From NCBI GenBank assembly GCA_964550845.1, contig CAZKAD010000003.1, positions 447-64,446 of the forward strand: a stretch of 64,000 nt of DNA. The letters are read 5' to 3'. The notes beneath the pieces are model-generated. The model saw only the letters and a program-made list of their open reading frames with translations. It made no database searches and was not told the DNA's origin. The position numbers were made by a program, and so were the translations under genes. This DNA comes from an uncultured Gammaproteobacteria bacterium. GTDB lineage: Bacteria > Patescibacteriota > Patescibacteriia > Magasanikbacterales > UBA922. The first letter of the stretch is position 1. Each line of letters begins with the position of its first letter. Positions 4,160 to 32,602 of the stretch are shown here, piece by piece.

Positions 4160-4687
4160 TCAGGGAATGATTGGCTCCGAGACACAATAGACATACCCGT
4201 TATTGAACAAATTTCCATTGGTGGTGAGAGAAAGGGTTTGCATACTGCCATTCAAAAAGAGAGAAATTTTACGCTGAACGAGTGTAAGCTTAATCTTCGG
4301 ATTTCGTGTTGGTAAAATAACTTGCTGGGAAAATAAGTCATCAGGTCCCCGAACCAAGTCGAAAATATGAGCCCCAATAAACTGTGTTGCTTCGGCTCGA
4401 TCAAGACTAAGCAACATTTTTTGAACATCTTTCGGAAGTGAATCGTCCGGTACAACCAGTAAAGTCACTTTTGCTTTCGGATCATTGAGAAGATCTGGAA
4501 AATGTGTTTTTTCAACAAGAGTTTTGTAGATGGAAAAATTTTTATCTTGAAGAGCACTGTAAATTGTCCCCGGTTGAGGAGTCCAAGCAAGATAAGGATT
4601 TTTTGCAAGTGCTCGATCAAAACGAAGTTCACCTACACTGGGAAACTCTTTCGACCATTCTACGTTATACCCGCTGGTGACTGACAT
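4160..4687 (-). CDS. Fasciclin (FAS1)-like domain protein
   Basis: KVTLLVVPDDSLPKDVQKMLLSLDRAEATQFIGAHIF...NGYVYCVSEPIIP matches the FAS1 pattern TVFAPTNEAF..LP......IL.YHVV...NGVIHVID.VL.P. Confidence 0.45.
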   Translation of the reverse strand: MSVTSGYNVEWSKEFPSVGELRFDRALAKNPYLAWTPQPGTIYSALQDKNFSIYKTLVEKTHFPDLLNDPKAKVTLLVVPDDSLPKDVQKMLLSLDRAEATQFIGAHIFDLVRGPDDLFSQQVILPTRNPKIKLTLVQRKISLFLNGSMQTLSLTTNGNLFNNGYVYCVSEPIIP

Positions 4688-6927: not shown

Positions 6928-9900
6928 ATGGCTGTCTTCTTCGCAAAAAGTCGGGACCCATTTTCAAACTTTTATCCGGTCTCATTTACTGTCGATGATT
7001 TGAAATACTCGAGTTCGGAACAGTATTTTATGGCCTCGAAAGCGAGATTCTTTAAAGATGTTGAAGCGGAGGACCAGATTATGGAAGCGGAATCTCCGAA
7101 AGAACAAAGAGAACTTGGACGTTCAGTCAAAAAGTTTGATCCAAGAGAATGGGATCGAGTTAAATTTAAAATCATGAAACAAGCCCTGTTGATTAAATTT
7201 CAACTTCCAAAGATGAAAAAGTTCCTTGTTGAGAGTCAACGAAAAGTTTTAATTGAAGCTGCACCTTGGGACGCGATTTGGGGAATTGGAATGGATGCTG
7301 ATAAAGCTGTGAATACACCCTTTCGTGAATGGGGAAAGAATGGACTTGGATTCTTATTGATGGAAGTTCGAGATTTTCTCCAAGGTAATTGGATTCAAGA
7401 AGACTTTGGTGTCTCAATGATTGGAAATTTCTATATCGGTGCACATCCAACTGAAGACCAAGCAAAGTTTCTTTTGGGAAAAGGAGTGAATCTATTTGTC
7501 TCCCTTGAGGAAAATCCAAGATATTTATCAGTTGTTGGTCAAGCATCGTCAAAAGTTTTTGCTCTTCCTACAGGAGGTATTCGAAATGATCAAGAGACAC
7601 TTGAATTTCTCGGTTGGTTACGAGATCAATATTTTCTCGGAAAAATCATTTATCTCCATAGTCGAAGAGGAATTGGAAGAACCGGATTGATTGCCAGTTT
7701 ATTTCTGAACTTGTTTCTCGGATATCAACCAAGTGATGCGTTGGATAAAGTTCGAAAATCTATTCATAGTCGAACTAATTTTAACCAGTCCTTCGGGACG
7801 TTTAAGCTTAAATTTATGCCTATTCCAGAAACTGCTTCACAAATAACTCAATTCACTCGTCTTGCCGACGGTGATAAAACCGATATTGATATGTCTGCTT
7901 ATACTCTTGAAGCAGAGAAAGCATGGATGACAAAACTTTCTGAAATTGAGCAAGACGACTTGATGACACGGGAAGATGTCGAATTGTATCAACAAATTGT
8001 ATCTCCTTCCTCTTCTTCAAAGGAAGTGAAAAAGGAAGATGAAATTAAACGTCTTGAAAAGTCTCTTAATCTTCCTGTTGGTGCAATTGAAGATGAGCAA
8101 GAAAATGACCCTCTTGCGGGTGCACTCGCAGAACTTGAACTTCGAAAGAGTGAAGAGAAGGAAGAACTTCGAAAGAGTGAAGAGAAGGAAGAACTTCGAA
8201 AGAGTGAAGAGAAGGACCCATTTGAAGCTGAACTTGAAGCGTTTGAAAATGAGGGTAAAAAAGATCCGCTCGAAGCTGAACTCGAGGCATTTGAGAATGA
8301 AGTAATCGAGCCTGACATCAAAACTTTCCTTGAAGAAGAGGCTAAAGTTGAAGTTAAACAACGAACTTCATTGACCGATCGAGATCTCGAAGAACAATTT
8401 CGACGTTTCGCTAATCAAGAACTTCATCTTCAAGCCGAGGAAGGTACATTTGTTCTTCAATCTGTCTTGAATGATATTTTCAATCGTTTTCTCGAACAAC
8501 AAAATATTCAAATTATCGATGTCGATAAGTTTGAACAAATCGCAATTCCCCTAATTGGAGAACCAGAGAAAATCGAATCAAAAATTCCCGAGTATGATGG
8601 AGATAAATATATTGAATCAAAAGTGTCAAAGTTGAATACTGGTTATCGAGTCAACTTTCGACTTCTTCCCGATGCAAATATTCGAATTACAAAAGTAAAA
8701 TCGCCAAAGCGATCACAAAAGAAGAAATCGAAAAGTGAAACTTTGTCTGAGAAAAAAGATGTTTCTCAATTGAGTCAAATTGAACCACCGAAAGAAGAGG
8801 TGAAAGAAGTGAAGATCGAGAAAAAACTTTCGTCATTTTTGTCCCATTTCTTCCCTGGCGATATTACCTTCATTCAACCGAATATCAATTTCACCGAAGA
8901 AACTTTGCATTATATGTCTCCAATGAGTAAAGCCGACAAACTCGCCGCATTACTTAAGACATATCCTCGTGCACAATTAGTTGTCGATGTTTTTGCTGGT
9001 ATTGGAGGCAATACACTTGGATTTGCTCGTGCAGGATTGCGTGTAGTCGCATATGAACGAGATCCGGAACGATTTAAAATGTTGAGAAATAACGTCCTTC
9101 ATTATCGGTTTGAGAAACAAGTGACGACGATTCGAGGAGAATTTAACCCCGGAAAAGATCTCGATATTATTCGAACTATTCAAAAGATTGAAGCAGACAA
9201 AGTAGTCTTCTTCTTTGATCCTCCATGGCTTCCATCTTTTGTCCAAAACTTTGACAAGTCACAATACATCTTAACTGGAATTACTCTTGCCGGTCAACTA
9301 CTTGAAGACATTGCTAAGAAAACTTTGCAGGAATATGGAGGATCGATATTTCATTTGCCTCCCGGTTACTCACTCAATTTGGCTGGAAGAATTGTTGATG
9401 ATAAATCTGATAACAAAGCGAGATTGATTTACTTTTTTGGCGATCAAATTCAAGCCAATATTGCCAAAGATTACAAACTGCAGATCAATTATGCAACTGA
9501 ATTTCCACGTGAACAATCCGAGGTCAAATATTCTCAAAATGAGTTAGTTGAACAACTGAAAGAAGTTGAACAACAAAAAGTGGAAGCTAAATTGTATCAA
9601 CCTCCGGTCAAAACAGTCTCGGTGGTCTTTCAAACTTTTCTGAATAAAAGCTTTCCTCGACGATCATATCAACATGAACCTTTCCATCCGAAAGCGGTTC
9701 ATAGTGGACAGCGAAAATTACTCTTGTCCGAGATTGAATTCTTGACTCGAGTTCTCTCAAAGGAAAAAACACTCGGTAAAGGCGGATCTTATACTATGCT
9801 TTACGTTGGAGCCGCGCCAGGAATTCATATTCCTTTGCTTGCAAATAAGTTTCCTGAAGTCAAGTTTATTTTGTATGATCCGGCCAAATTTGATATTGCT

Positions 9901-10542
9901 CCATCATCTCAGATCGAAATTCATCGAGAACTTTTCACTGATGAAAAAGTCGAAATGTACAAGAAGACTGAAAATTTATTGTTTGTGAGTGATATTCGAT
10001 CGACGCCGAAACAATTCGATCCAAATCAATCCGGCTTTGATTCGAGTTTTGAACAAGAGGTGATTTTTAACATGGAGCAACAAAAGAAATGGGTGACGGA
10101 ACTTCAACCACTCAGAAGTCTACTTAAATTTCGTCTTCCTTACAATGATCCTGAAAACCCTCGAGATGAACAGGAAACATTTAAATATCTTGATGGTATT
10201 CTTTTTTTCCAAGCTTATCCTCCAGAGCAATCAGGAGAAACTCGGCTTGAAGTTGGACTTCCGTTGAAAGAGACTGGTTATTTTCTTGCCCAGTATGAAC
10301 AGCAAATGTTTTATTTTAATACTCGATATCGGATTCAATCCTTCTCTCATTATTCACAATTTTACGGATGGTCTTATGATACTCTGAGAGAATACTTTAT
10401 TCTTCAAAACTATTACAAATTTCGTGGGATTATCGACAGTGATAAGAAGATCGAATATGATTTTCAAGATCACGACCGGATGGCTCACGGCCCGGAAAAG
10501 AAGATTTTTAACATTCTTCGTAACGCGGCAAAATACGGATAA
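6928..10542 (+). CDS. Multidomain RNA cap-modifying protein: NADAR (YbiA-like) domain, dual-specificity phosphatase / Mce1-like RNA triphosphatase-like domain with the catalytic Cys replaced by Ser, an acidic coiled-coil linker, a Tgs1-like cap guanine-N2 methyltransferase and a poxvirus VP39-like cap 2'-O-methyltransferase
   Basis: NADAR: FSNFYP...SSEQYFMASKARFF...LGR...W....IMKQALLIKFQ...LIEAAPWDAIWGIGMD...LGFLLMEVRDFL, which follows the YbiA consensus. PTP-like: IYLHSRRGIGRTGL, a Cx5R P-loop in which the Cys is Ser (agt at the catalytic position). Tgs1-like: VVDVFAGIGGNTLGFARAGLRVVAYERDP...FFFDPPW. VP39-like: HSGQRKLLLSEIEFLT...GGSYTMLYVGAAPGIHI...KFILYDP, compared with vaccinia VP39 FEGQKKLL..EF / VVYIGSAPGTHI. 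No guanylyltransferase KxDG motif was seen. Confidence 0.85.
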   Translation: MAVFFAKSRDPFSNFYPVSFTVDDLKYSSSEQYFMASKARFFKDVEAEDQIMEAESPKEQRELGRSVKKFDPREWDRVKFKIMKQALLIKFQLPKMKKFLVESQRKVLIEAAPWDAIWGIGMDADKAVNTPFREWGKNGLGFLLMEVRDFLQGNWIQEDFGVSMIGNFYIGAHPTEDQAKFLLGKGVNLFVSLEENPRYLSVVGQASSKVFALPTGGIRNDQETLEFLGWLRDQYFLGKIIYLHSRRGIGRTGLIASLFLNLFLGYQPSDALDKVRKSIHSRTNFNQSFGTFKLKFMPIPETASQITQFTRLADGDKTDIDMSAYTLEAEKAWMTKLSEIEQDDLMTREDVELYQQIVSPSSSSKEVKKEDEIKRLEKSLNLPVGAIEDEQENDPLAGALAELELRKSEEKEELRKSEEKEELRKSEEKDPFEAELEAFENEGKKDPLEAELEAFENEVIEPDIKTFLEEEAKVEVKQRTSLTDRDLEEQFRRFANQELHLQAEEGTFVLQSVLNDIFNRFLEQQNIQIIDVDKFEQIAIPLIGEPEKIESKIPEYDGDKYIESKVSKLNTGYRVNFRLLPDANIRITKVKSPKRSQKKKSKSETLSEKKDVSQLSQIEPPKEEVKEVKIEKKLSSFLSHFFPGDITFIQPNINFTEETLHYMSPMSKADKLAALLKTYPRAQLVVDVFAGIGGNTLGFARAGLRVVAYERDPERFKMLRNNVLHYRFEKQVTTIRGEFNPGKDLDIIRTIQKIEADKVVFFFDPPWLPSFVQNFDKSQYILTGITLAGQLLEDIAKKTLQEYGGSIFHLPPGYSLNLAGRIVDDKSDNKARLIYFFGDQIQANIAKDYKLQINYATEFPREQSEVKYSQNELVEQLKEVEQQKVEAKLYQPPVKTVSVVFQTFLNKSFPRRSYQHEPFHPKAVHSGQRKLLLSEIEFLTRVLSKEKTLGKGGSYTMLYVGAAPGIHIPLLANKFPEVKFILYDPAKFDIAPSSQIEIHRELFTDEKVEMYKKTENLLFVSDIRSTPKQFDPNQSGFDSSFEQEVIFNMEQQKKWVTELQPLRSLLKFRLPYNDPENPRDEQETFKYLDGILFFQAYPPEQSGETRLEVGLPLKETGYFLAQYEQQMFYFNTRYRIQSFSHYSQFYGWSYDTLREYFILQNYYKFRGIIDSDKKIEYDFQDHDRMAHGPEKKIFNILRNAAKYG

Positions 10543-11941: not shown

Positions 11942-12952
11942 TTAATCGCTTGGAAGGAACTTTTTGACTCTTTCAAGAGATTTCTTCATTGCGACGAGTT
12001 GATCTACTTCGGGTTTCACAGTCTTATAAGCTTCATCAAACAGCTGAGATAAATCCCAACACCATCCGTAATCTTTTTGTTTCTTAATGAATGCAGCTTT
12101 CATCCAATCGAAAACAATTTCTTCTTCGTTTTCGATTACGATCTTTCTTTTTCGAGGATTTTCAGGCTCATATGGAGGAGAAGGCTCGTTGATTGGTTTT
12201 TCAGCCGTCTTAGCATCTTGAGAAGGCACAACTACTTGTTGAGCAGGCTTGACATCTTGAGCAGGCTCAATTGCAGATTGAGGAGGAGCAGCCATCTTGA
12301 CTTCTTGACGAGACAAATATTGTCGATTATTTCCAATAAAATAATCAGTTTTGCGTCTAAAAGGCATCATGCAGTCAAGGTGATCGATTGACATTCCGTG
12401 TTTATCTTTGAAAACTTGAATAGTTTCAAAGTTATCTTCTTTTGACGCAAACTTTGGATGAACAAATACTCTTTCAAGTACCCATTCATTAAAACTTATG
12501 GGACGATTAGGTCGACAAAAATTGAGATGAGCAACTTGGTCAAAATGATGACCAAATTTTTCATTCAACTTTTCTAGAGAATTGGCTGTAACAACACAAA
12601 ATTCACTTTTGTCTCCTCTACCATTTTCAAAGAAATGACTCAGGATACAAATATATTTTCGAGTTTTTTGGAATTTAATTTTCTTTTGCCCTCCGTTCAA
12701 AATCTTCTTCAAATTATAAACTGCACGGCCATTAGTTACACAAGAAGATTTCAGTTCAAAGACGTCGTTTCCTTGTTTGATCTTTTTTTCTTCTTTGTTG
12801 ATGGCTTTGCTGTAGCTTTTAGCTTCAGCATAAGTAAAGTTATTCTTATTATAAAGAATACAATTGGACAAGATCAATTCGGCACCTTCACGGCCGCGTA
12901 ATTGATCTTTGTAGGCGCGTCGATATGTTACCACAACATGATATTGCTCCAT
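11942..12952 (-). CDS. Hypothetical protein; paralog of 13120..14076
   Basis: Blocks shared with the neighbouring gene: KYICILSHFF/QYICVFSQL, CVVTANSLEKL/AAVMVHSLDRKSIEKI and W.LE.VFVHPKF/WEFEGVFLHPDF, followed by a charged low-complexity tail. Confidence 0.65.
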   Translation of the reverse strand: MEQYHVVVTYRRAYKDQLRGREGAELILSNCILYNKNNFTYAEAKSYSKAINKEEKKIKQGNDVFELKSSCVTNGRAVYNLKKILNGGQKKIKFQKTRKYICILSHFFENGRGDKSEFCVVTANSLEKLNEKFGHHFDQVAHLNFCRPNRPISFNEWVLERVFVHPKFASKEDNFETIQVFKDKHGMSIDHLDCMMPFRRKTDYFIGNNRQYLSRQEVKMAAPPQSAIEPAQDVKPAQQVVVPSQDAKTAEKPINEPSPPYEPENPRKRKIVIENEEEIVFDWMKAAFIKKQKDYGWCWDLSQLFDEAYKTVKPEVDQLVAMKKSLERVKKFLPSD

Positions 12953-13119: not shown

Positions 13120-14076
13120 TTAGTCAGCGTAATAAGAGTCACCATGACTCTCGACAGTCAAATCAATTGACTCAATCTCTTCTCGGAAAACTTTTCTTGC
13201 CGAAGATGAATCTTCGTCATGTTCCTTTCTCTTTCGAGGAAGTTCTTCCTTGAGATGCATTTTACTCAAGCGAGGTTCATCTTGAGATGAGGAAACCTTT
13301 CGCTTTCTCATCTCCTTGTGTTCGGAGTCAGAATCGGACACGTGATCTTCTTCGTGGAGATGTTTGTTCTCAATTGGGAAATCAACTTCGGTCAAAACTT
13401 CGTCTTCTTCGAGTTTTCGCTTCCCCTTTTTCTCAGGTTTTCTCTGATGGTCAGACCATTCTTCATCGTCACTTGCATCTTCGCCCTTTTCGGCTCTCTT
13501 TTTGTCTCGATTGAATTCACGTTGAAAGTGTGTCGGGACTTTAGTACAAAGATTTGGTGCATCAGGAATAGGGAAGTCCGGATGTAAGAAAACTCCTTCA
13601 AATTCCCAATCACTGAGCTGTTGTCCTTCTGGAATCGAACGAATTTCATCTTTCTCAACAGGGAGTTTTTCCCAGTTTTGACTGATTACTACCCCGACAT
13701 TTTGTCTGGCGTCCTTGAGGACTGATTCAATCTTTTCAATTGACTTTCGGTCAAGTGAATGAACCATCACAGCTGCGAAATTAGATTCTTGATTGGCTCT
13801 TATTTCGACATTCTTTTTGGCCTTTGACAATTGGGAGAACACACAAATGTATTGCCAGTCATCTTCTTGATATTCAGGAGAAATATGCTTAAATTGGACT
13901 CCTTCCGGTCGAGCCTCAATTGTGAAGCCCTTCTTAGCAATCCTCTTTCTAGCGCTCTCAGTTGCTAAATACTTTTCCGCCTGCTGTGCATGATCAGCTA
14001 AACTAACTTGCTTGACAGTGAAAATCCTTTTGGTTGATCGTTCGAAGAAGACGACGAGACTCATTAGCGAAATCAA
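13120..14076 (-). CDS. Hypothetical protein; paralog of 11942..12952, with an acidic/basic C-terminal tail
   Basis: See the paralog blocks above. 318-aa ORF. Confidence 0.65.
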   Translation of the reverse strand: MISLMSLVVFFERSTKRIFTVKQVSLADHAQQAEKYLATESARKRIAKKGFTIEARPEGVQFKHISPEYQEDDWQYICVFSQLSKAKKNVEIRANQESNFAAVMVHSLDRKSIEKIESVLKDARQNVGVVISQNWEKLPVEKDEIRSIPEGQQLSDWEFEGVFLHPDFPIPDAPNLCTKVPTHFQREFNRDKKRAEKGEDASDDEEWSDHQRKPEKKGKRKLEEDEVLTEVDFPIENKHLHEEDHVSDSDSEHKEMRKRKVSSSQDEPRLSKMHLKEELPRKRKEHDEDSSSARKVFREEIESIDLTVESHGDSYYAD

Positions 14077-14138: not shown

Positions 14139-14166
14139 ATTAAACGTCCTTTTAGGACTGGTTAAA
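14139..14166. promoter_or_regulatory. Conserved intergenic palindromic element TTAAACGTCCttttaGGACTGGTTAAA; its TTA supplies the stop codon of 14162..14899
   Basis: Direct reading. The stop TAA (minus strand) lies inside the GGTTAAA flank. Confidence 0.6.
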
Positions 14167-14899
14167 TTATTCCGTAGACATACACACTACTTCCAGTTGC
14201 AAATAGTCTTCCAGAAGACTTTGACGTTACTCCCAAACTGCGAATAGGAGCTTGTGTTATTTTTAATGCCATTGGATATGTCATTACCCCGTATGCATTG
14301 GTTTCAAGTGAAGCCCATCCAACACAATCTGGAATAAATATCATTTTTGTTGTTCCAGTTGTAGCTGGATCTGAAATATATAAATTAACGGTTGCAAATC
14401 CATCATTCGGACCCGAAGGCCCTTGTGCAGAAATATCAAATTCTACGTTAGCAGTTGTATTAATTGTCGGGCCAGATCCTTGAAGCGAATATTTATTCAT
14501 AACCGTCGTAATCCCAGGTTCGTCGGGAAAAAATACTCCATATCTAAATGTGCCAGTCGTCGATAATTTCAAGTTAAATAGCACACGAAGAAAGTTATAA
14601 CCAGTCGCGTTAAATGAAAATGTTCCACTCGATACAGTTCCATTATTAAACACAAAACTGGTCAACAAATATTCACCATTGGTTCCATTTGGAGGGCCAA
14701 CCGGCCCAGTCGGTCCTGTTATTCCATTTCCAGAAGGGCCAGTTGGTCCGATCAATCCGGTTGTGCCAACTGGTCCAGGAGATCCCGAAGGACCAGTTAC
14801 TCCAGTCGCACCTCTGATAACCGGAATTAGATTTGTGAACAACGGAGACGTATTATTGCCGAGCCCGGATGTAAATTGAGAAACACGGAAAGAAGACAT
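14162..14899 (-). CDS. Collagen-like protein with GxT/GPT triplet repeats and a C-terminal globular domain shared by a fibre-like family
   Basis: MSSFRVS... N-terminus. Approx. 50 aa of [41 protein letters not shown]. The C-terminal domain ends ...[18 protein letters not shown]. Confidence 0.8.
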
Positions 14900-14957
14900 T
14901 TAATTGGCAAATTAATTTTTATTATTTTCTCAATTCTCCTTTATTCCAAATGAGAAA

Positions 14958-15755
14958 TTAAATTTCCGCGTGAAACGAAATTCGAGATCCAGGTGCAATT
15001 AATCCTCCACTCGAAGGTAACAAAGTAATTTTTGTAATTGCTCCAGTACTATTCCAGAAATGAACACCAGAATATTTTTGCCAATAGAAATACAAAGAAT
15101 CAGCTGGAAACTTTGACGACATTAGTACATCTTCAGAAGAAAATGTTTTTGGTATTCCTGTCACTCCATAAAGAGGAAAATCTATTTTTGCAAAACTATA
15201 GGTTCCAGTTGGGAGTGAGTTCGAAGCCATATTACCAATAAAAGCTCCAGTTAAATTTGATATGTGTAAGGTTCTTGAAATAGTATTGGAATCGTCTGGT
15301 CCGGTTGAAACTAAATAACGACATGCTGTTATATATGGGCCAGTGAGATCATTGATTCGAACCGCTAACCCTGTTCCTGTTCCAACATCAGTCGATCGAA
15401 ATGAACACAAACAAAAGATTTTTGAATATGATAGAGGGAAAGATTGAATTGATATCGAAGCTGTTGCAGAGGTAACAACTGTGGAATAAATTTGAACCAA
15501 TGCTGATCCAGAACCACTTGTGAGTGGACCGGTTGGACCGGTTACCCCAGTGGATCCAGTAGCTCCCGCTGGGCCCGCAACTCCATTGGGTCCAGTTGGC
15601 CCCGTTATTCCTGGAGCTCCAATTGATCCGACAGGCCCGGTTGGCCCGGTTGTTTCGGCATAAATTACTTCGGCTGAAATGGAATATACGGTTGGAACGT
15701 ACGGTTCAAGCAAAGAAACAGTTTTTGCAGCTACTCGAAACGAAGGACGATCCAT
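14958..15755 (-). CDS. Collagen-like protein (GPTGP repeats) with the family C-terminal domain
   Basis: Start set at the internal Met ([11 protein letters not shown]...) to match the paralog N-termini (MSFRVS) and to avoid overlap with 15782..16471. Repeats are [43 protein letters not shown]. Confidence 0.75.
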
Positions 15756-15781
15756 TGATATTTTGCTTCCGAATAAAATTT

Positions 15782-16471
15782 TTAATCGAGAAAATATAGC
15801 GATATTTTTGAGCCTGTCGCAAAATTTCCTCCGCTCACACTGAAAAAGGTAATATTTGACACGCCTGTAGACAATGCAGTTGTAATTAGAACATTTTCGA
15901 TGGAACCTGTATTTGAATCGACCCAACTGCCATGTTCACCAAACATCGTTAATGCATTCGACACATTCCGAGAAAGATTTGAAATGGTCAAGGTTTGAAC
16001 ACCAAAAGCTGTGGTACCAAGACCAGGGGTTTTATACGCATATCCGTATGTTGACGCAAATGCAAATCGAGTTGCATATGTAGATCCAGACAAGGAATAA
16101 TGTACCACATTGACATAAGGTCCAGAACTATTGTTGACTGTAACCCCAACTGGAGAACTGATCACATCCGAGAAACGAGTACACAACAAGGCTCGAATCG
16201 ATTTTATCGGCGAAGGAAATGATGTAAACGAAATCGAACTTGTCGCTCCCGTTAGCGTAACAGAACCAATCACCGACGAAACGATTGCAGCCACCGGGCC
16301 GGTTGGACCAGTTATAGCCGAACCAACTGATCCGGTTGGGCCTGTAGCTCCGGTTGGACCTGTCGCAACTTCTACAAAAGCCGGTCCTGTAGGTCCGGTT
16401 GGGCCGGTTGGGCCTGTAATTGGTAAAACAAGTCCAGGAGGACTGATTGAACTTGACACACGGAATGACAT
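15782..16471 (-). CDS. Collagen-like protein ([11 protein letters not shown] repeats) with the family C-terminal domain
   Basis: [59 protein letters not shown]... The C-terminus [21 protein letters not shown] contains the GNFATGS family motif. Confidence 0.8.
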
Positions 16472-16574
16472 GTTAATTCGGATAATTCAAATAATTTAGA
16501 TAATGTAAAATTTATTTAATCGCAAAATTTGCACAAAGTTCAGTAATTCGATTAAACATTTTCTGCTTAACAAA

Positions 16575-18950
16575 ATGTCTTTCACTATTGTCACTGGACT
16601 GATAGACATTCGTCGAGGAGAATGGAACAGTTATTTTCGTCGGAGCATCCAAAATTACTTTGCCTCAATGACCAAAGGGGTTCTTCGATACGATCATCCA
16701 ATGATTGTATTCATTGAGCAAGAATATTACCCTCAAGTTGTCGAACTCCGCGAAGAGTTTCCAAATACTCGGATTATTCCGGTTACATTGTCGCAAACTT
16801 ATTTGTATCCACAAAGAGACCGTATCGGACAGATTCAATCTTCTTCGGAATACAAAAGTTTACTGCGAGAAGAAAGCAAAGTTAATCCAGAGCATTGGTG
16901 TCCGGACTATGATATCGTCACAATTCAAAAGGCATGTTGGATGCGAGATGCAATTCGAGAAAATCCTTTTTCAACTGAATACTTCGTCTGGATTGATGGT
17001 GGATATAGCAAAGGAACACTTGGTCTGACCATTCCAGCTACACTTGATTTATCTCCAATTCTTCAAATGATGGATTCGTCAAAAATCTTCTTTCAAGTTC
17101 TCGGAGAATCTCCTCGGAATCCATCCTTATTTCCTCTTGACATGACTCCGCTCGACTATTTCAAGAAGAATGATACTTTTATTTCCGGAGGACTTTATCT
17201 TGCAGGTAAAGCAAGTTTACCAATTTTTGATTATTACATTGAATTGGTTGATAAATGTTTACAACAAAATCTGATTGATGATGACCAGTTTTACTGGTTT
17301 CTCTGTATGAATTGTTCCAGATTTGCTCCATCATTTGTAGCTTATTCAATCGATGGTTGGGGTGAAGTATTTGAATTATTGAAAGCTCTTTCATTACCAG
17401 GTCAAAGAAAAATTTCCTCTTCAGCAGAAGAAAAATTTGTCCAAGTCAGTCAGCCAAGGATTGCAGTTCTTCTCACTGGCAATATTCGATCTTGGAAATA
17501 TATTGATAAGGCTTGGATGAAAAATTTTGATTGCTATGCAATCACCTATCCGAATAAATATATGTATCATCCTTTTATTCAATCTCAAATTGGAACATTT
17601 GATAAGAAGATTGATCCAACAGAAGAACTTCGAGACTTTCCTTTTAAGAAGATTTGTACAGTCTCTCAAGATCGAGATGACGAAATGGAAGCAAAAATGC
17701 ACCCTGAAATGAAAAAGATTTATCATGGTTATTATCAATATCATACTTCTCTCGAAGCTTTCCATCAAATATCAGAATTAAATCATTATGATTTTGTGAT
17801 TCGCACTCGATTTGATTTACAACCTCCTCCTGGATTGTTGGACAATTTATATCGAATCCTTTCAGTGTTTGAACCGACATTGTTACTCAACTCACTTGGG
17901 GATTTCTCCAATAAACCCAATCTTCCAATCCAAACCAATTTGAATGAACTTCAAGGAATTGCGGCGAAATCTATTTTGTATCCTCCTGAAACAGCTGCAT
18001 TCTATACTTACAATCCAAATACTATTCCGTCAGATACAGTTTTTATGGGGCCGCCCGAGATGATAAAGAAGTTGTTAAGTTTTGCAATTTCATCATATTT
18101 TCAACCAAGTTCTGAAAATTGTTGGAAAAATCCTCCTCATGGAATCATTCGTGAATTTATCTTGAAAAATCAAATCACTACACATGTTGCCAATTTTGGA
18201 ACGATTTTCAGACCACTTCCTCTTGAAGATCTTCCACCAAGAAAGGAGACTCTTTCAATTGGATTGCTGATTTCTGGGAATCTTCGGGGAAAATCACTTG
18301 CCTTGCCTCCACAATATCTTTTGACTAAACATCATATTACCGTTTATTTTGCTTCTTGGATTGATGAAGATTTTCTTTATGCTATTCAAGATCTCGAGCG
18401 TCTATCAAAACAAGGAATTGAATACCGTCTGATGTTGTTTCCACGTTCAAGTTCTTCGAGAATTGTTGAAAGTAGTTCCTCTACAAATTATCAGACTTAT
18501 CCCGGAATCTGTGGAGAGAAAACATTCGGCAATGCTTGTTCAATGTGGTATCTGTTTGAACAAGGATTGCAAGCAATTAAAACTTCGGAGCAAAAATGCG
18601 ATTTGATTATTCGCTGGCGTCCAGATTTGATTCTCGATTCGAATTGTATGCTTGATGATGAATTGATGTATCAAAGTGTTGAAAAGAATTGTCTGATGAT
18701 GCCGAAGTGGCATGGAAAATTTGGAGATGTCAATCGGCAAATGATGGATCAACTTTTCTGGGGTCCCGTCGAATTGATGCAAAAACTTTGTCTTTATTCG
18801 AGTCGAAAAGAACATTCCGAACAATCCGAATTTGCCCATACCGGAGAAGGGATGCTTGCGAGAATGATTGAAAAGGAAAAGATTTCCCTCGAACGTTTCC
18901 CAGCTCATTATGGGCTAAGGAGGAATGATCGTGTTGAAAAGATTGTTTGA
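16575..18950 (+). CDS. Large hypothetical protein with three internally repeated modules; possibly carbohydrate-modifying, by its position between the collagen-like genes and a glycosyltransferase
   Basis: 791-aa ORF. The repeated module starts are FTIVTGLIDIRRGEW, IAVLLTGNIRSWKY and IGLLISGNLRGKSL. Function is not established. Confidence 0.7.
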   Translation: MSFTIVTGLIDIRRGEWNSYFRRSIQNYFASMTKGVLRYDHPMIVFIEQEYYPQVVELREEFPNTRIIPVTLSQTYLYPQRDRIGQIQSSSEYKSLLREESKVNPEHWCPDYDIVTIQKACWMRDAIRENPFSTEYFVWIDGGYSKGTLGLTIPATLDLSPILQMMDSSKIFFQVLGESPRNPSLFPLDMTPLDYFKKNDTFISGGLYLAGKASLPIFDYYIELVDKCLQQNLIDDDQFYWFLCMNCSRFAPSFVAYSIDGWGEVFELLKALSLPGQRKISSSAEEKFVQVSQPRIAVLLTGNIRSWKYIDKAWMKNFDCYAITYPNKYMYHPFIQSQIGTFDKKIDPTEELRDFPFKKICTVSQDRDDEMEAKMHPEMKKIYHGYYQYHTSLEAFHQISELNHYDFVIRTRFDLQPPPGLLDNLYRILSVFEPTLLLNSLGDFSNKPNLPIQTNLNELQGIAAKSILYPPETAAFYTYNPNTIPSDTVFMGPPEMIKKLLSFAISSYFQPSSENCWKNPPHGIIREFILKNQITTHVANFGTIFRPLPLEDLPPRKETLSIGLLISGNLRGKSLALPPQYLLTKHHITVYFASWIDEDFLYAIQDLERLSKQGIEYRLMLFPRSSSSRIVESSSSTNYQTYPGICGEKTFGNACSMWYLFEQGLQAIKTSEQKCDLIIRWRPDLILDSNCMLDDELMYQSVEKNCLMMPKWHGKFGDVNRQMMDQLFWGPVELMQKLCLYSSRKEHSEQSEFAHTGEGMLARMIEKEKISLERFPAHYGLRRNDRVEKIV

Positions 18951-18987
18951 ACTTTTTGAACTTTTTGAACTTTTGAAATAAAAAGCA

Positions 18988-19236
18988 ATGAGCGCCCATC
19001 GACGGCGGGAGTGTCCCGAATGCGGAGGTTTATCTGCGACCGAATGCAATCATGAATGTGGGACATTTATTTGCCAAGCCCGCGGATGTTCAAGAATTGG
19101 CGACTCCTTTTACTATGATCCTATGGCGAGACATACTGTTCTTGGACATAATCCAAACTGTAATCAATTGAGTTATGATAGTGATACAGATGAGACTGAA
19201 TATGATCAAGAATCTTCTAACGAAGAAGAATATTAA
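18988..19236 (+). CDS. Small Cys-rich (zinc-binding-like) protein with an acidic tail
   Basis: RECPECGG...CNHECGTFICQARGC (8 Cys) followed by a D/E-rich C-terminus. Confidence 0.45.
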   Translation: MSAHRRRECPECGGLSATECNHECGTFICQARGCSRIGDSFYYDPMARHTVLGHNPNCNQLSYDSDTDETEYDQESSNEEEY

Positions 19237-19259
19237 ACGTTTCTTTTCTTTGTAAAACA

Positions 19260-19595
19260 ATGGAGAAATTTCGTTTGATTGAAAATGAAACTGAAAATGT
19301 GATTGCTCTTTTTGATGCAAGCGATGAAGATGATGCTTGGGCACAACTGTTAAATTCATCTGATTACAATGAGATGGTTCAGGAACTACTTGACGGAGTC
19401 AATCTGAAGTATCAGGCCAAATACGGGAAAAAACCTGATCTGGCTTGTTTTACGAGAAATGCGAATGGGAAAGTTGCCAATCTCGAAAAATGCATTATTC
19501 ATCTCAATGTTGCCTATCAAATGATTGAGGGAGAAGAAAGCGATCATGACGAAAGTGACGATGAAGAACTACAAGAAGAATTCGAAGATTTTTAA
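19260..19595 (+). CDS. Hypothetical acidic protein
   Basis: 111-aa ORF in the same orientation as its neighbours. A hairpin spans the next gene's start (TTCGCTTCCAaaaaTGGAAGCGAA at about 19628..19653). Confidence 0.45.
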   Translation: MEKFRLIENETENVIALFDASDEDDAWAQLLNSSDYNEMVQELLDGVNLKYQAKYGKKPDLACFTRNANGKVANLEKCIIHLNVAYQMIEGEESDHDESDDEELQEEFEDF

Positions 19596-19651
19596 TCGCT
19601 TCCGAAAGGAAAGTTAATCAAAGAGAAATAAAGAATTTTTCGCTTCCAAAA

Positions 19652-19918
19652 ATGGAAGCGAAATTTGTGCTTGTAACAGGAAAGACTGGTCCTCGCGCTG
19701 AGGAAGAGGAATTTAAGATTACTGAAGATGAACTGTCGGCTTATACAATTATTCCGCTCAAGCCAGGATATCGAGTTCAACTATGGTGTAGTCATCTTCA
19801 ATTGACCGCCGAATTCGAAGATGAAGAAGAGTTCGAAGAATTGAAAAATTTTTTGAGTAATTATCCGCACAAAGATCGATTGACTCAAATGAAAGAGAGG
19901 AGGAAGAAGAAAAAATAA
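19652..19918 (+). CDS. Hypothetical small protein
   Basis: 88-aa ORF. A convergent terminator element follows at 19972..19996. Confidence 0.4.
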   Translation: MEAKFVLVTGKTGPRAEEEEFKITEDELSAYTIIPLKPGYRVQLWCSHLQLTAEFEDEEEFEELKNFLSNYPHKDRLTQMKERRKKKK

Positions 19919-19971
19919 ATGCTTAGGCAATTCTCCTCGATTAAACTTCTTTGAGACTTTTCGAATTGATT

Positions 19972-19996
19972 ATACGTCTCTTTAAGACTAGTTAAA
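19972..19996. terminator. Conserved intergenic palindromic element ATACGTCTCtttaAGACTAGTTAAA between convergent genes
   Basis: Direct reading. Located between the stops of 19652..19918 (+) and 20006..22171 (-). Confidence 0.6.
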
Positions 19997-20005
19997 TATA
20001 TCTAT

Positions 20006-22171
20006 TTATGCGCTGAGATAAACCCACCTTGCTCGACTAAACATAAATCGAGCTGTACCAAGACTATCTAAAAGGCTTGCAGTTGGTATTGAAATTACAC
20101 TTCCTCCTGCACCTGCAAGATTGCTCCCGTTTTCAGTCGTCAATGTCAATAAATTACTTCCCCCAGTAATTATTACAATCATCATACCTTCATATGCTAA
20201 AGTTATAGGCAATATCAACGTGTAACCGTTAACTGTATCGACATTTTCAAAGTATGTTCCTATCATACTTCCAACTCCTAGATTGAATGTTCCTCCTCCT
20301 TCCGGAATTAAAACTAATCCGTGTGCCCATGTTTTTAATGCCGGTAAATGATCAACGATTAAAGAACTTCTGTAATAATTACTTCCGGTTCCAAATGATT
20401 TGTCATCTTGATGTAAAATAGTCCATCCAGAAGCACTTGTTACATTCACTCGATTACATCCTATTAAACATAAATTTCTTGAATCTGTGGAAGTGCACCC
20501 TGATGAATAAGCCATGAATACACCAGTAGAACGCAAACAGAAACCCGACGGACTTGACAGAAGCATACAACTATCCGATCCAGAAGCTCTTGATCCAGTT
20601 GCCAGCAAAATAGAAACAAATTTGGATGATAATATATTTGAATCGTGCGCGAATAAGATTGAACAATTAACTGGAGAAGGATTTGTTATTGGGTTTATTG
20701 TCGAAACAGCTTCTGGACGGGCATTTAAATTCATTCTGTTATTTGCACCTCCTACAATTAACGAATATAACCCAGCATGCATTGTCGATCCAGATGATAC
20801 TAAAATACCACAGTTTCTCGGGGGTATTATAGCATTCCAATCAAAATTATTGACTAGAATGCTATCTAGAGTTAGTCTATTACCGAATCCTCCCATGATA
20901 AAAGAATTTGAAGATCCTGACATTAAAGATGAAGGTGAAAATAAAATTGCAGAATTATTGCATCGAGCTGAAACAGTCGCATTATTCGAATGTGCAATTA
21001 AACAGTCAGTCGATCCTGACATAATAGAACTTATCGAGCCAATAGATGTGGCTCTTATTGCATTGGTTACTACAGAACTTTCTCCTCCGATTAAATTGCT
21101 TGTATCCGATCCGTTCATTGTTGTAGATTTTGAGCCGATGTTAGAACTATGAATTGAAGAACCGACTGAGCTAGCATATGCTAATAGATTAATATTTTCA
21201 GAAGAAGTAACTGTATTGAATTCTCCGGCAATCATCGAATATGAAGATTGATTAACAGTATTTTGTAGCCCTGATACCACACTTGAACCAGTTCCTCCGG
21301 TCGTAATTGTTCCGGAAATTCCTCCTAATATCGATCCTATTGAAGCTTGATTAACGGGAGTTCTACCAAAAGAGATTGATTCTGTATTTGATAATAGTCC
21401 TTGAGGTCCAGTGACTCCCGTCGGTCCTAAATTTCCTTGAACTCCTTGAACTCCTTGAACTCCTTGCGGTCCAGTTGGTCCAATTGGGCCTTGAACTCCT
21501 TGAACTCCTTGACTTCCATTCGCTCCCGCGGGTCCAGTTGGACCTGTCACACCCTGAATTCCTTGACTTCCGTTTGCACCTGCAGGACCAGTTGGTCCGG
21601 TTGCACCCGTAGGACCATTCGCTCCCGCGGGACCAGTTGGTCCGGTTGCACCCGTGTTAGTTGAGAATCCATCTGCTCCCTGAGGTCCAGTTGGACCTGT
21701 CGCTCCCGCAGGACCATTCGCTCCCGCAGGACCAGTTGGTCCGGTTGCACCCGTATTGGTAGCCGAGCCTGGAATTCCTTGCAATCCGGTTGGACCTGTA
21801 ACTCCGGCTACTCCTTGAGGTCCTGTTGGTCCTGTCGCTCCTGTGCTTGTAGCAGAGCCTGGAATTCCTTGAGGTCCAGAAGGTCCAGTTGGACCTGTTA
21901 TTCCAATTATTCCCTGAGGTCCAGTTGGTCCGGTTGCTCCTGTGCTTGTAGCCGAGCCTGGAATTCCTTGTGGTCCAGTCGGTCCTAAATTTCCCTGTAC
22001 TCCTTGAATTCCTTGTACTCCTTGTGGACCAGTTGGCCCAATTGGCCCTTCAGGACCCTGAGGACCTGTGGCTCCTGTACTTGTTGCAGAACCGGCAGGC
22101 CCTGTTGGCCCAATGCCAGCGCCGAGAAGAAGTAAAGGAGTATAAGAATTAAGGTTAATAATTCTTGACAT
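20006..22171 (-). CDS. Large collagen-like protein with approx. 250 aa of Gxx/GPT triplets at the N-terminus and a Ser/Thr/Asn-rich beta-rich C-terminal region; fibre-like
   Basis: [49 protein letters not shown]... and so on, followed by an approx. 450-aa S/T/N/G-rich region. Confidence 0.8.
21400..22130. repeat. Coding collagen triplet-repeat DNA (GGTCC/AGTTGG periodicity)
   Basis: Direct reading. The periodic 9-nt codon pattern generates the spurious antisense ORFs 21437..21664, 21547..21750 and 21779..21988. Confidence 0.85.
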
Positions 22172-22216
22172 TTTGTCAAAAAATCCTACTTTTTAATAAA
22201 AGTAAGAAAAAAATAA

Positions 22217-23158
22217 TCAATCGAACATAATCTGGTAAAACTTTTTCATTACATTTTCCTCTGAAAAAGCTAAATATGGATTAGCAGTATTAGGAACAGT
22301 ATGCTTTTGCCACAACAATTGTTGCAGTTCTTCAAGATTATGAAACACTTTGATTCGGTCTTGACCAAGTGAAATATGTTCATTATCTTTGGTAATTGTT
22401 GCTGGACAAGTTAGAATAGGTTTATCTTGAATTCCAAATTCGGCAACCGCCAAACCAAATGTTTCTCCTTCTTTTCTGGCGTGAATCATTGCGTCACAAC
22501 CAAGAATATAGTTACCTTTTTCTTCGAGATCAATAATGGTTGGGAGAAAAAGAACTCTTGGGTGAACAATAAATTTATCTGTATTGACAAAGACAAACCA
22601 AAAATCAGGATGGTCGTCAAGATGATCTTGAATTTCCCTCTTGACATAATCAATCGAAAAGGTGTCTTTTCCTCCATGCCGCCCGTAAACATAAGCATCT
22701 ACCGGAATATTCCATTTTTTTCGAAATGCGAGTCTTTTCTGATGATCATTTGGATATTGATGAACAATATGAGGTAACCATTCGGCTTTGTGATCATCTG
22801 CAATTTTCTTTGAGACGCAAGCATATCTTCCATGTGGTTGATAAGCAAAGACCGAGTGAATCAGACATGGAACTTTATCAGTAATCAAATGATCCTTGTT
22901 GCCATATTTAATAATGTAAAGACCATCAATTTCAAATGTTTGTATTTTCTTCTCAACGTCTCTCATGTCAGAAAATTTAACTACTGAATCCCCAAAACGC
23001 TGGGTGAATTTTTTCAATACATCTGGATGTGTCGCATAGTTATAAAAAATCAGCGAGATACCTCCACTCTTTTCATGAGCATCTGCATAATCAAACAAAG
23101 CGACAGTTGTACCTCGTTCACAAAGTTGAACTGAGAGGAAAGCAATGACTTTTTCCAT
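22217..23158 (-). CDS. Glycosyltransferase (GT1/GT4-like C-terminal domain)
   Basis: DAMIHARKEGETFGLAVAEFGIQDKPILTC matches the GT4 E-x7-E motif (EGFGL..LEAMA.G.PVI). Confidence 0.6.
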   Translation of the reverse strand: MEKVIAFLSVQLCERGTTVALFDYADAHEKSGGISLIFYNYATHPDVLKKFTQRFGDSVVKFSDMRDVEKKIQTFEIDGLYIIKYGNKDHLITDKVPCLIHSVFAYQPHGRYACVSKKIADDHKAEWLPHIVHQYPNDHQKRLAFRKKWNIPVDAYVYGRHGGKDTFSIDYVKREIQDHLDDHPDFWFVFVNTDKFIVHPRVLFLPTIIDLEEKGNYILGCDAMIHARKEGETFGLAVAEFGIQDKPILTCPATITKDNEHISLGQDRIKVFHNLEELQQLLWQKHTVPNTANPYLAFSEENVMKKFYQIMFD

Positions 23159-30781: not shown

Positions 30782-31345
30782 TTAAGGTGCAGGCGAAACT
30801 GCAAAATAAGATCCAGTTGCAAAGTTTCCCTCAGAGAGGAAGAATTGAATTGATGATACCGCGTTTGTGCTCCGGAACAAGCCTTGCATTGTTCCGGATC
30901 TTGCTTCGCTACCAGTTGTCACATGGTTACCAGCCGCAGTAATATTTTTAAACCAAGTAGTATTTTTACAATTTGGAATAATTATACTGGCATTACCGGA
31001 AATTCCAGCCGCAGCTCCATTAGCCGGAAAAGCGTCAAGTGAAAAAGAATTTTGATTGTAAGCGGCAACAACCGCGGTTGTATCATTGACTCCATATGAG
31101 GAAACTTGGTCATAAATGGTTCCCGTATTATTATTTAATCTCATGAACACATTAGCTTTTCCATCACTAGCAGTAAGTCGAGTATTGATATTAACTTGAA
31201 ATGACCCTCCAGCTGGAAGATTATTTAGGTTGACAGATGAGGTTGCAGCCGTTAACACCACACTTGTAACTGGGAGTACCGAGGCAATCAAATTTGTGCT
31301 TGGAATTTGATTCCTCAAATCTGCGCTTTGCGAAATTCTTGACAT
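30782..31345 (-). CDS. Fibre-family protein (shared C-terminal domain, no collagen repeats)
   Basis: The C-terminus ...QFFLSEGNFATGSYFAVSPAP shares the GNFATGS motif and the preceding beta-rich domain with the collagen-like ORFs. Confidence 0.6.
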   Translation of the reverse strand: MSRISQSADLRNQIPSTNLIASVLPVTSVVLTAATSSVNLNNLPAGGSFQVNINTRLTASDGKANVFMRLNNNTGTIYDQVSSYGVNDTTAVVAAYNQNSFSLDAFPANGAAAGISGNASIIIPNCKNTTWFKNITAAGNHVTTGSEARSGTMQGLFRSTNAVSSIQFFLSEGNFATGSYFAVSPAP

Positions 31346-31359
31346 CGGGGAGAAAGCTC

Positions 31360-31382
31360 GATTACTCTTTTTTGGAGTAATC
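31360..31382. terminator. Hairpin GATTACTCttttttgGAGTAATC downstream of 31408..32010
   Basis: 8-bp perfect inverted repeat 26 nt after the stop (minus strand). Confidence 0.5.
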
Positions 31383-31407
31383 GAAATTATTTTTATTCTT
31401 TTTCTTT

Positions 31408-32010
31408 TTACATCGGCACTACAGTGAAAACCGAACCAGTGGCAAAGTCTCCGTCGGATGAGGACAAAGTTACTGAGCTAATTGCACCAGTGCTTCGGAA
31501 GGTCAATTGAGACACTGCTACACGTCCGTCAGTTCCAGATGAGGCATGCGAGCACATCACGTGAATTGGTTTGAACCAATTAGTATTCACTCCAGCAATC
31601 AAGATCTGGGCTTGTCCAGCATTTCCGGTAGCAGATGCATTAGCAGGGAAAACACCAATGGTACCACTGGTTTGGGCATAAGCAATTGAACCGGTTGTTG
31701 TTGATCCGGTGTTTGAAACTGCAATACCATCATAGTTGGCTCCGGTATTGCTATTGCATCGGATAAAAACAGTTCCAATTCCAGTTGCTCCCAACAAGCG
31801 AGACATAACTGAAATTCTCAAATTTGCTGCCAGAGGCAAGGGTGACAAAGTCACTGATGATGTGGAGGCAGCCAAAGCGATTTGTACCGGAGGAACAAAT
31901 CCAACCGTCTGAAGGCCAGGGACGGTATTCAATAGAGCGGGATTTTGAGTGAGTCGCGAAGCCATTGAAGATGAAGTTTCTTTCAGAATCAAATGAAAAA
32001 ATTTTTTCAA
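31408..32010 (-). CDS. Fibre-family protein (shared C-terminal domain, no collagen repeats)
   Basis: C-terminus ...VTLSSSDGDFATGSVFTVVPM. Paralog of 30782..31345. Confidence 0.6.
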   Translation of the reverse strand: MKKFFHLILKETSSSMASRLTQNPALLNTVPGLQTVGFVPPVQIALAASTSSVTLSPLPLAANLRISVMSRLLGATGIGTVFIRCNSNTGANYDGIAVSNTGSTTTGSIAYAQTSGTIGVFPANASATGNAGQAQILIAGVNTNWFKPIHVMCSHASSGTDGRVAVSQLTFRSTGAISSVTLSSSDGDFATGSVFTVVPM

Positions 32011-32014
32011 AAAT

Positions 32015-32602
32015 TTACTTCTTTTCTTTCTCAGGGATCGCGATCATTACATCATTTTCGCAATATCCCGGAAGGAAAGAAAATGAGTAAGTTGTATTCA
32101 GCTCGGTAAGAGATTTTCGAATTTCGGACAAAAAATCAATCTTTCCATAAGACTGTTCTCCCCATGGATACATATTCTTCAGAATTCGGACGTCATCAAT
32201 ACAAATAATATGATCTTTTCGAGGCAAACATTTGAGTGCTTTTAATTCATGAAGCAGAGGACAAAGATTTCGATGGCCCTGGATCTGACTGTTGTCAACG
32301 TGAGCATCGAAGAAAAATAAAGTTCTTTGATTGAAATCTGGATTACCTTCAAGGACTTCGGCAATATCATTACTATCCATTTGCAAGAGAGTTAATCGAT
32401 GAATTGAAAGATCTCGGGCGAAAGCTTGTTTTCCAAGGTCCACCCAATCTTTGCGAAGTTCGACTGAGTACAACTTGCGAAAATCACATTGAATCGCTTT
32501 GCGCAAACTTACGTTGCGACGAGGGTCATACAGCCCTGTTTCGAAATAATTTACAATTTGATGTTTGGCTCGGATTTGTTCAAGATCAAATTCAATCGGC
32601 AT
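32015..32602 (-). CDS. Hypothetical protein
   Basis: 195-aa ORF with only a 4-nt gap to the upstream gene. No recognisable motif. Confidence 0.6.
   Translation of the reverse strand: MPIEFDLEQIRAKHQIVNYFETGLYDPRRNVSLRKAIQCDFRKLYSVELRKDWVDLGKQAFARDLSIHRLTLLQMDSNDIAEVLEGNPDFNQRTLFFFDAHVDNSQIQGHRNLCPLLHELKALKCLPRKDHIICIDDVRILKNMYPWGEQSYGKIDFLSEIRKSLTELNTTYSFSFLPGYCENDVMIAIPEKEKK

Follow-up and report, generated by a model that had tools for sequence, protein, structure and literature searches.

The window analysed here, a 64,000-nucleotide stretch of contig CAZKAD010000003.1 (assembly GCA_964550845.1), carries four genes for collagen-like proteins (c1 to c4), two genes for putative glycan-building enzymes of 791 and 313 amino acids (aa) beside them and, further along, two genes (n1 and n2) whose products consist of just the C-terminal domain, hereafter called the head, in which c1 to c3 end (Table 1). 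A first-pass annotation, made from the letters alone, had described the cluster as BclA-like collagen fibres accompanied by the enzymes that glycosylate them, and every open reading frame (ORF) it had named was found in place. By its gene content, the window appears to come from a phycodnavirus-type nucleocytoplasmic large DNA virus. It has a GC content of ~0.37 and contains hallmarks of such viruses, namely the P9 minor-capsid transmembrane helices of the Paramecium bursaria chlorella virus (PBCV) type, DUF5832, DUF2738, DUF5767, and pol X, together with genes for an AAA ATPase, a superfamily-2 helicase, Ser/Thr kinases, Skp1, and a hybrid histidine kinase.

Table 1. Collagen, head, and enzyme genes of the window, with their parts.
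Feature	Coordinates	Strand	Description
c1	14162..14899	-	245 aa; N-terminus MSSFRVS; 13 G-X-Y triplets (aa 30-70); head domain aa ~69-244
c2	14958..15755	-	265 aa; N-terminus MDRPSFRVA; 14 uninterrupted triplets (aa 37-78); head with extra loops
c3	15782..16471	-	229 aa; N-terminus MSFRVS; 9 triplets (5 of them GPT); head domain aa ~57-228
791-aa protein	16575..18950	+	three-domain putative glycan-synthesis enzyme, divergent from c3
791-aa protein, domains			d1, aa 2-266, HtrL_YibB; d2, aa ~286-552, and d3, aa ~553-791, GT-A-like and mutually related
Presence/absence segment with c4	19916..22215		precisely missing from L002 (flanks 92-95% nucleotide identity) and L006 (blastn break-points)
c4	20006..22171	-	721 aa; 75 triplets in six blocks
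c4 C-terminal region	20006..21391	-	461 aa; Ser/Gly/Asn-rich, orphan
c4 collagen region	21392..22111	-	aa 21-260; blocks parted by a one-triplet break (TST/TNT); 99-bp (33-aa) tandem period
313-aa protein	22217..23158	-	putative GT-B (GT4-like) glycosyltransferase; E-x7-E motif ETFGLAVAE
n1	30782..31345	-	187 aa; head only, without collagen region
n2	31408..31965	-	185 aa; head only; 40% identical to n1

Collagen-type repeats had been proposed for four minus-strand genes and were confirmed in all of them, with 13, 14, 9, and 75 triplets in c1, c2, c3, and c4, respectively. The triplets of c1 to c3 lie in runs of at least three, uninterrupted only in c2, and the three proteins scored 19.4, 25.0, and 16.3 bits against the Pfam Collagen model (PF01391), all under its cut-off of 27.2 bits. 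Judged from the sequence, glycine at every third position across 9 to 14 triplets is a non-chance pattern. Throughout the collagen regions of c1 to c4 Pro is the commonest residue in X and Thr in Y (5/13 triplets of c1, 7/14 of c2, and 6/9 of c3), and Lys is absent, a composition that is BclA-like and bacterial rather than animal, as had been suggested. The repeats had also been called GPT-dominated. GPT is indeed the commonest triplet (2/13 in c1, 3/14 in c2, and 5/9 in c3), but it makes up a minority of c4 (15/75), and GPQ, GVQ, and GAT are frequent too. The N-terminus and the C-terminal domain reported as common to three of the collagen genes are those of c1 to c3. For c2, a longer ORF with a TTG start extends to 15926, yet related strains call the 265-aa form.

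The head spans ~170 aa (c2 and c3 are 33% identical over 252 aa, c1 and c3 27% over 250 aa), and the five proteins of the window that carry it align in register over the whole domain, including the C-terminal motif ..SxGNFATGSxFxLYGI... Its presence in the collagen-less ORFs at 30782-31965, noticed in the first-pass annotation, was borne out, so that c1 to c3, n1, and n2 form a modular family with collagen-less paralogs. In a database of six proteins, c3 was the paralog nearest to n1 and n2 (E values of 3e-8 and 2e-7, respectively). The start of n2 is more likely the ATG at 31965, which gives a 185-aa product identical to a database protein, than the TTG at 32010. A six-frame profile scan of the window recovered c1 to c3, n1, and n2, with no sixth copy and no match in c4; because all five proteins were in the profile, the scan speaks only for the absence of further copies of the head. 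A 195-aa gene without a family match adjoins n2 at 32015-32602 on the minus strand; it is kept together with n1, n2, and a DHHA1-domain gene in the relative L008 (positions 1071-1658 there).

A word-indexed search gave just 11 relatives of the head, and the domain looked like an orphan. This was overturned by an exhaustive hidden Markov model search of 1.84 billion cluster representatives with a family profile built from the window domains and seven relatives, which returned 35,862 clusters (at 50% identity) at E<=1e-3 and 24,347 at E<=1e-10, with E values down to 1e-90 for multi-copy proteins. Most of the top matches hold two to three tandem copies of the head, and about half of them end with it at the C-terminus. 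The tandem arrangement is unlike that of an obligate trimeric head of the C1q type. One carrier protein also contains Phage-tail_3 and Rcc01698_C domains, others match PHROG families of tail-fibre, tail, and head-decoration proteins, and a remote family member is encoded in a phage-like row of same-strand genes, adjoining an M23 peptidase gene. Identity of the window heads to members outside the viral island is ~18-27%. Named examples from cultured phages are scarce, since a tblastn search of GenBank phages gave no match with c3 and, with the phage-like family member P0009, just two unannotated Caudovirales records.

A beta-sandwich had been expected for the C-terminal domain, and the AlphaFold2 model of the n1 head, calculated from an alignment of 26 sequences, is all-beta with twelve strands (predicted local distance difference test, pLDDT, 86.9; predicted template modelling score, pTM, 0.80). 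The further assignment of the domain to the C1q/TNF/BclA type did not hold. Pfam found nothing but Collagen in the head proteins at E<=0.1 to 1, with no BclA_C, C1q, or TNF; a profile search of all PDB sequences gave no match; and a Foldseek comparison of the model with solved structures returned nothing at E<=1e-3, with no C1q, TNF, or BclA entry among the top 50 matches listed. The best of these matches were galectin carbohydrate-recognition domains, weak ones (E above 1e-3) with template modelling (TM) scores of 0.39-0.45. Against the predicted structures of BFVD, 133 matches were obtained at E<=1e-3, the best with an E value of 1.6e-18, TM scores of 0.81/0.89, and a root-mean-square deviation (rmsd) of 1.8; in general the TM scores were 0.7-0.8 and the rmsd ~1.8, and almost all of the matched proteins came from uncultured Caudovirales. 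Among them were a 'tail fiber protein', lambda Stf repeat proteins, FN3 fusions, and collagen triple helix repeat proteins from a phage (A0A6J5MEG8) and from a giant virus, Solumvirus (A0A3G5AGA0). The pairing of collagen and head in the latter two means that this architecture pre-exists elsewhere. On the profile matches and the predicted fold, the head belongs to a very large, unnamed, all-beta family associated with the tail fibres of tailed phages.

The long protein c4 gave a clear Pfam Collagen match (110.1 bits, E value of 4e-32, above the cut-off); GPT accounts for 20% of its triplets, and Thr occupies Y in 26/75 of them. Its 461-aa C-terminal region, of which Ser makes up 18%, had no match in Pfam, NCBIfam, PDB sequences, GenBank phages (tblastn), or IMG/VR. 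Hydrophobic autocorrelation in this region peaks at 16 and 32 residues, beyond the 99th percentile of shuffled sequences, and the sequence periodicity suggests a solenoid-like repeat.

The 791-aa gene and c3 share a divergent intergenic region of 103 bp. The first domain of the encoded protein matches the Pfam family HtrL_YibB (PF09612) with an E value of 8e-34 and 117.9 bits against a cut-off of 24.1, and it reached 109.7 of the 264.9 required for the NCBIfam equivalog TIGR02192; being under the equivalog cut-off, the protein is not an ortholog of Escherichia coli YibB, though it is a family member. The HtrL_YibB family is biochemically uncharacterised and is found in lipo-oligosaccharide loci (PMC4172580). 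The four homologs of the 791-aa protein that were found show, when aligned, parallel motifs in d2 and d3. Comparison of the two domains via hhalign gave a probability of 93% (E value of 2.5e-7, 52 columns), the probability for d1 against d2 or d3 was <1%, and a BLAST self-comparison of the protein found no internal repeats. The 'three internal repeats' ascribed to this protein were not borne out: d2 and d3 are related to each other, but d1 is a separate HtrL_YibB domain, and a triple repeat was rejected.

The AlphaFold2 model of d2-d3 was of moderate quality (pLDDT 68.6). It gave 58 Foldseek matches to PDB structures at E<=1e-3, with TM scores of 0.2-0.44, and every named match among the 50 shown has a GT-A glycosyltransferase fold, the vaccinia envelope protein H3 included. 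The top match was human LH3, with two tandem GT-A domains (E value of 5.7e-8, TM 0.24, 8% identity); given the modelled structure, it offers fold-level support for two GT-A-like domains and no evidence of collagen specificity. A motif D-x3-R-x-R-x-D is conserved in d2 and d3, and an obvious DxD was not seen. The 313-aa protein had no direct Pfam match, even at E<=10; its GT4 assignment comes via its homologs and the E-x7-E motif only. The homologs number 948; PF00534 is carried by 4 of the 120 listed (36-58% identity), and several, including a Catovirus protein, are named glycosyltransferase by their source. The claim that the neighbouring enzymes are glycosyltransferases is credible, for the 313-aa protein via its homologs and for the 791-aa protein via HtrL_YibB and the GT-A-like folds.

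The relatives compared (L001 to L008) are contigs from other samples, short fragments in which the absence of a gene does not equal its absence from the genome. Strain L002, at 92-95% nucleotide identity, has the c3-c2-c1 triple but lacks c4 and the genes for two proteins of 318 and 336 aa to the left of c1. In another close strain, L001 (~95% nucleotide identity over 4.3 kb), a second cassette c3'-c2'-c1' is present, the genes of which are 64, 55, and 53% identical to the first; this patchy sequence conservation is consistent with a conserved core and variable loops. In L006 and L007, fragments of one strain with flanking genes 87-95% identical, no collagen gene was found and c4 is absent. 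Two extra paralogs of the 791-aa gene lie there between the 318-like and 791-like genes, in the position of the collagen triple, one of 503 aa corresponding to d2-d3 and one of 477 aa comprising the HtrL domain and a partial d2 (114-3082 in L006 and 1943-4911 in L007). The fragments L003 to L005 of a more distant virus contain a d2-d3 homolog and a GT4-like homolog and no collagen or head gene within ~20 kb. The n1-n2 pair is conserved with its flanking genes in L008.

Overall, the c3-c2-c1 triple occurs 0, 1, or 2 times among the strains, and c4 behaves as a clean indel, next to which the 313-aa gene is 90-96% conserved in L002 and L006. Conservation also changes sharply at the boundary of the 791-aa gene, which is 56% identical to its L006 ortholog, as against 87-95% for the three adjoining small genes (95-100% when compared with L002). 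The duplication and replacement of the triple, the indels of c4 and of the 318- and 336-aa genes, and this shift of identity together mark a variable island. At the same time, the genes of the island are under purifying selection, with ratios of nonsynonymous to synonymous substitution rates (dN/dS) of 0.07-0.29 against a ~95%-identical strain (0.09 for c2); c1 is 93% identical at the amino acid level to its L002 counterpart, with a dN/dS of 0.29. These ratios and the gene calls conserved in three strains identify the genes as real and constrained, and spurious ORFs or a low-complexity artefact were rejected on the same grounds.

Several other features of the island and the window were noted. 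The three small genes (18988-19918, plus strand) encode a Cys-rich protein of 82 aa and acidic proteins of 111 and 88 aa. The stop codon of the 791-aa gene is spanned by a perfect tandem repeat with a 9-bp unit, TTTGAACTT x3.2 (18946-18974), a short way upstream of the 82-aa gene. The 336-aa gene (11942-12952) and its neighbour of 314/318 aa (13120-14064), both on the minus strand, encode apparent paralogs with a common '..VF[VL]HP.F..' core and acidic/Lys-rich tails; neither has a family match, and both genes are present in L001 and L007. Inspection by eye of the sequences upstream of the collagen and head genes revealed no convincing common promoter motif. A Skp1-like protein (2660-3277, plus strand) and a fasciclin-domain protein (4160-4687, minus strand) are encoded close to the window's left end. 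At 6928-10542 (plus strand) a 1204-aa fusion combines NADAR, cap-methyltransferase-like, and poly(A)-polymerase regulatory (VP39-like) domains; the same fusion followed by a GT4-like gene was found in the more distant relative (L003; L005 1-1007). The hybrid histidine kinase (54377-56182, plus strand; 601 aa) of this giant-virus-like genome comprises HisKA, HATPase_c, and response-regulator receiver domains.

On balance, we lean towards reading the locus as a strain-variable surface island of this phycodnavirus-type virus. The proteins c1 to c3 would be small paralogous fibre proteins, with the S-F-R-V-S motif at the N-terminus as a putative capsid anchor. Three chains would wind the stalk of 9-14 triplets into a triple helix of ~8-12 nm, and the ~170-aa phage-type all-beta head would most likely be the distal binding module, possibly a sugar-binding one in view of the weak galectin-like resemblance of its model. 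The proteins n1 and n2 would represent stalk-less, head-only versions, and c4, unrelated to them, a far longer collagen fibre of its own that ends in an orphan repetitive region. The 791- and 313-aa enzymes would be viral glycan-building genes that reside in the same recombination-prone accessory island.

Several points weigh against this reading. The collagen stretches of c1 to c3 are short and fall below the Pfam cut-off. Two to three tandem heads per chain, as are frequent in the family, are more readily reconciled with a monomeric module than with a trimeric knob of the classical kind, and with no solved structure matching the head at E<=1e-3 its binding role is deduced from context. The d2-d3 model is moderate, its TM scores are 0.2-0.4, and the domains have no clear DxD motif. 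Finally, we infer both the trimerisation and the virion location of the fibre proteins from the genes.

A possible alternative, in which we place distinctly less confidence, is that no functional tie exists between the enzymes and the neighbouring collagen proteins: the glycosyltransferases would decorate the major capsid protein or build another viral glycan, and the two sets of genes would lie side by side only as accessory genes gathered in a recombination-prone island. The independent variation of enzyme and collagen genes among the relatives speaks for it, as does the precedent of PBCV-1 A064R, a documented three-domain viral glycosyltransferase that acts on capsid protein glycans (PMC9614988), and HtrL_YibB has been linked to lipo-oligosaccharide loci, not to protein glycosylation (PMC4172580). 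However, the adjacency of the enzyme and collagen genes is retained in three close strains (the window, L001, and L002), and the other contigs are so short that collagen genes may lie elsewhere in those genomes.

The interpretation put forward in the first-pass annotation, BclA-like fibres with a trimeric C1q/TNF-type head whose GPT threonines are O-glycosylated by the adjacent 791- and 313-aa enzymes of a dedicated island, seems to us unlikely. The collagen region of BclA carries O-linked oligosaccharides (Daubenspeck 2004, cited in PMC9614988), and with Thr as the commonest Y residue and no Lys, any sugar on the present stalks would be on Thr/Ser and not on hydroxylysine. Two credible glycosyltransferase genes flank the collagen genes, one of them across the short intergenic region from c3, and the top fold match of d2-d3 is a collagen glycosyltransferase with tandem GT-A domains. 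That match to LH3, however, at 8% identity and a TM score of 0.24, is probably due to the tandem pair of GT-A folds, and the substrate of LH3 is hydroxylysine, a residue that these proteins cannot contain. The head did not match BclA_C, C1q, or TNF in any of the Pfam, PDB sequence, or listed fold comparisons. In addition, L006 and L007 keep 791-like and 313-like genes in fragments devoid of a collagen gene, in L003 to L005 the enzyme families lie far from any collagen or head gene, and in L002 and L006, where c4 is missing, the adjacent 313-aa gene is conserved. Among the ~49 larger ORFs of the window that were scanned, none was recognised as a hydroxylase or sugar-nucleotide pathway gene. Glycosylation of the fibres is possible in itself, but the idea loses force because enzyme and collagen genes are present or absent independently of each other in the compared sequences. 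Least probable of all, despite the fasciclin-domain protein as another adhesion-type module in the window and the many architectures in which the head family occurs, is that the collagen-head proteins are secreted or cell-surface proteins made in the infected host or an internal scaffold, since the annotated carriers of the head are overwhelmingly phage tail or tail-fibre proteins, c1 to c3 have no obvious signal-peptide-like N-terminus (by reading of the sequence, without a predictor), and the nearest counterparts built on this modular plan are proteins of the virion.

The reading of the locus as a surface island raised a wider hypothesis, which we put forward tentatively and with more doubt than the reading itself. 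Among the receptor-binding or lectin-like families of tailed phages that still lack a name, that of the head might be one of the largest (at least 35,000 clusters, with no Pfam model or solved structure). A eukaryotic giant virus would have captured the head, fused it to collagen stalks, and would now shuffle it as three-gene cassettes, which strains carry in 0, 1, or 2 copies or with glycosyltransferase genes in their place, so as to alter its surface or host specificity in the manner of phage tail-fibre cassette exchange. If c1 to c3 are virion fibres, they would provide a compact and experimentally tractable case of a giant-virus attachment apparatus built from an anchor motif, a collagen stalk, and an exchangeable head, and would link the fibres of giant viruses to a domain family of phage tail fibres with abundant members in metagenomes. 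Through the duplication and replacement of the cassette and the clean indels, the island stands out as a likely determinant of host range or antigenicity. Glycosylation of the stalks, if true, would be a viral parallel to BclA and is offered as a hypothesis only.

Comparison with known systems places the locus among several of them. BclA, the exosporium glycoprotein of Bacillus anthracis, and c1 to c3 have in common a short N-terminal targeting segment, a putative one in c1 to c3, GPT-rich collagen with Pro in X and Thr in Y, a C-terminal beta-rich domain, and a variable repeat number, and the collagen regions of both are without hydroxylysine chemistry. They differ in the head, which did not match BclA_C, C1q, or TNF, in the GPT content of c4, which is just 20%, and in that no rhamnose or anthrose pathway lies near the genes described here. 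In the Zamilon virophage, Zav_19 and Zav_20 together with Zav_1 share a common N-terminus and carry beta-sandwich heads on stalks of differing length, including collagen of 14 and 38 G-X-X triplets, and the cap protein NMV_189 of marseillevirus consists of a head only (bioRxiv 10.1101/2023.01.23.525297). Compared by architecture only, this set follows the same modular logic as c1 to c3 with n1 and n2, a head-only protein being present in both. However, the window heads are homologous to each other whereas the Zamilon heads differ, the N-terminal motif is here ~5 residues long, and an adenovirus-knob-type fold was not recovered.

Giant viruses with several collagen-like proteins and virus-encoded glycosyltransferases are exemplified by mimivirus, with L71 and others and the enzyme L230 (PMC9614988). 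L230 hydroxylates Lys and glucosylates the resulting hydroxylysine, whereas the collagen regions described here have no Lys and no 2-oxoglutarate oxygenase domain was found in the window. Chlorovirus A064R and the 791-aa protein are each a single viral polypeptide with three glycan-synthesis domains of ~200-270 aa, encoded in a phycodnavirus-type genome and compared here by domain content only. The N-terminal domain D1 of A064R resembles a glycosyltransferase and its third domain is a methyltransferase, whereas the 791-aa protein joins HtrL_YibB to two GT-A-like domains.

The relatives in tailed phages and Solumvirus have the same head by profile and predicted fold, and collagen together with the head in A0A6J5MEG8 and A0A3G5AGA0. 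In the present case a large DNA virus of eukaryotes carries the head, and within the reach of the tools used, no description turned up of head-only paralogs, or of three-gene cassettes duplicated or swapped between strains, among the phage members. Giant viruses are well known to encode both collagen-like proteins and glycosyltransferases (PMC9614988), and collagen stalks with beta-sandwich heads are known from virophages and phages. Two points are less ordinary: how large the unnamed head family is, with no representation in Pfam or PDB, and the cassette-like variation between strains.

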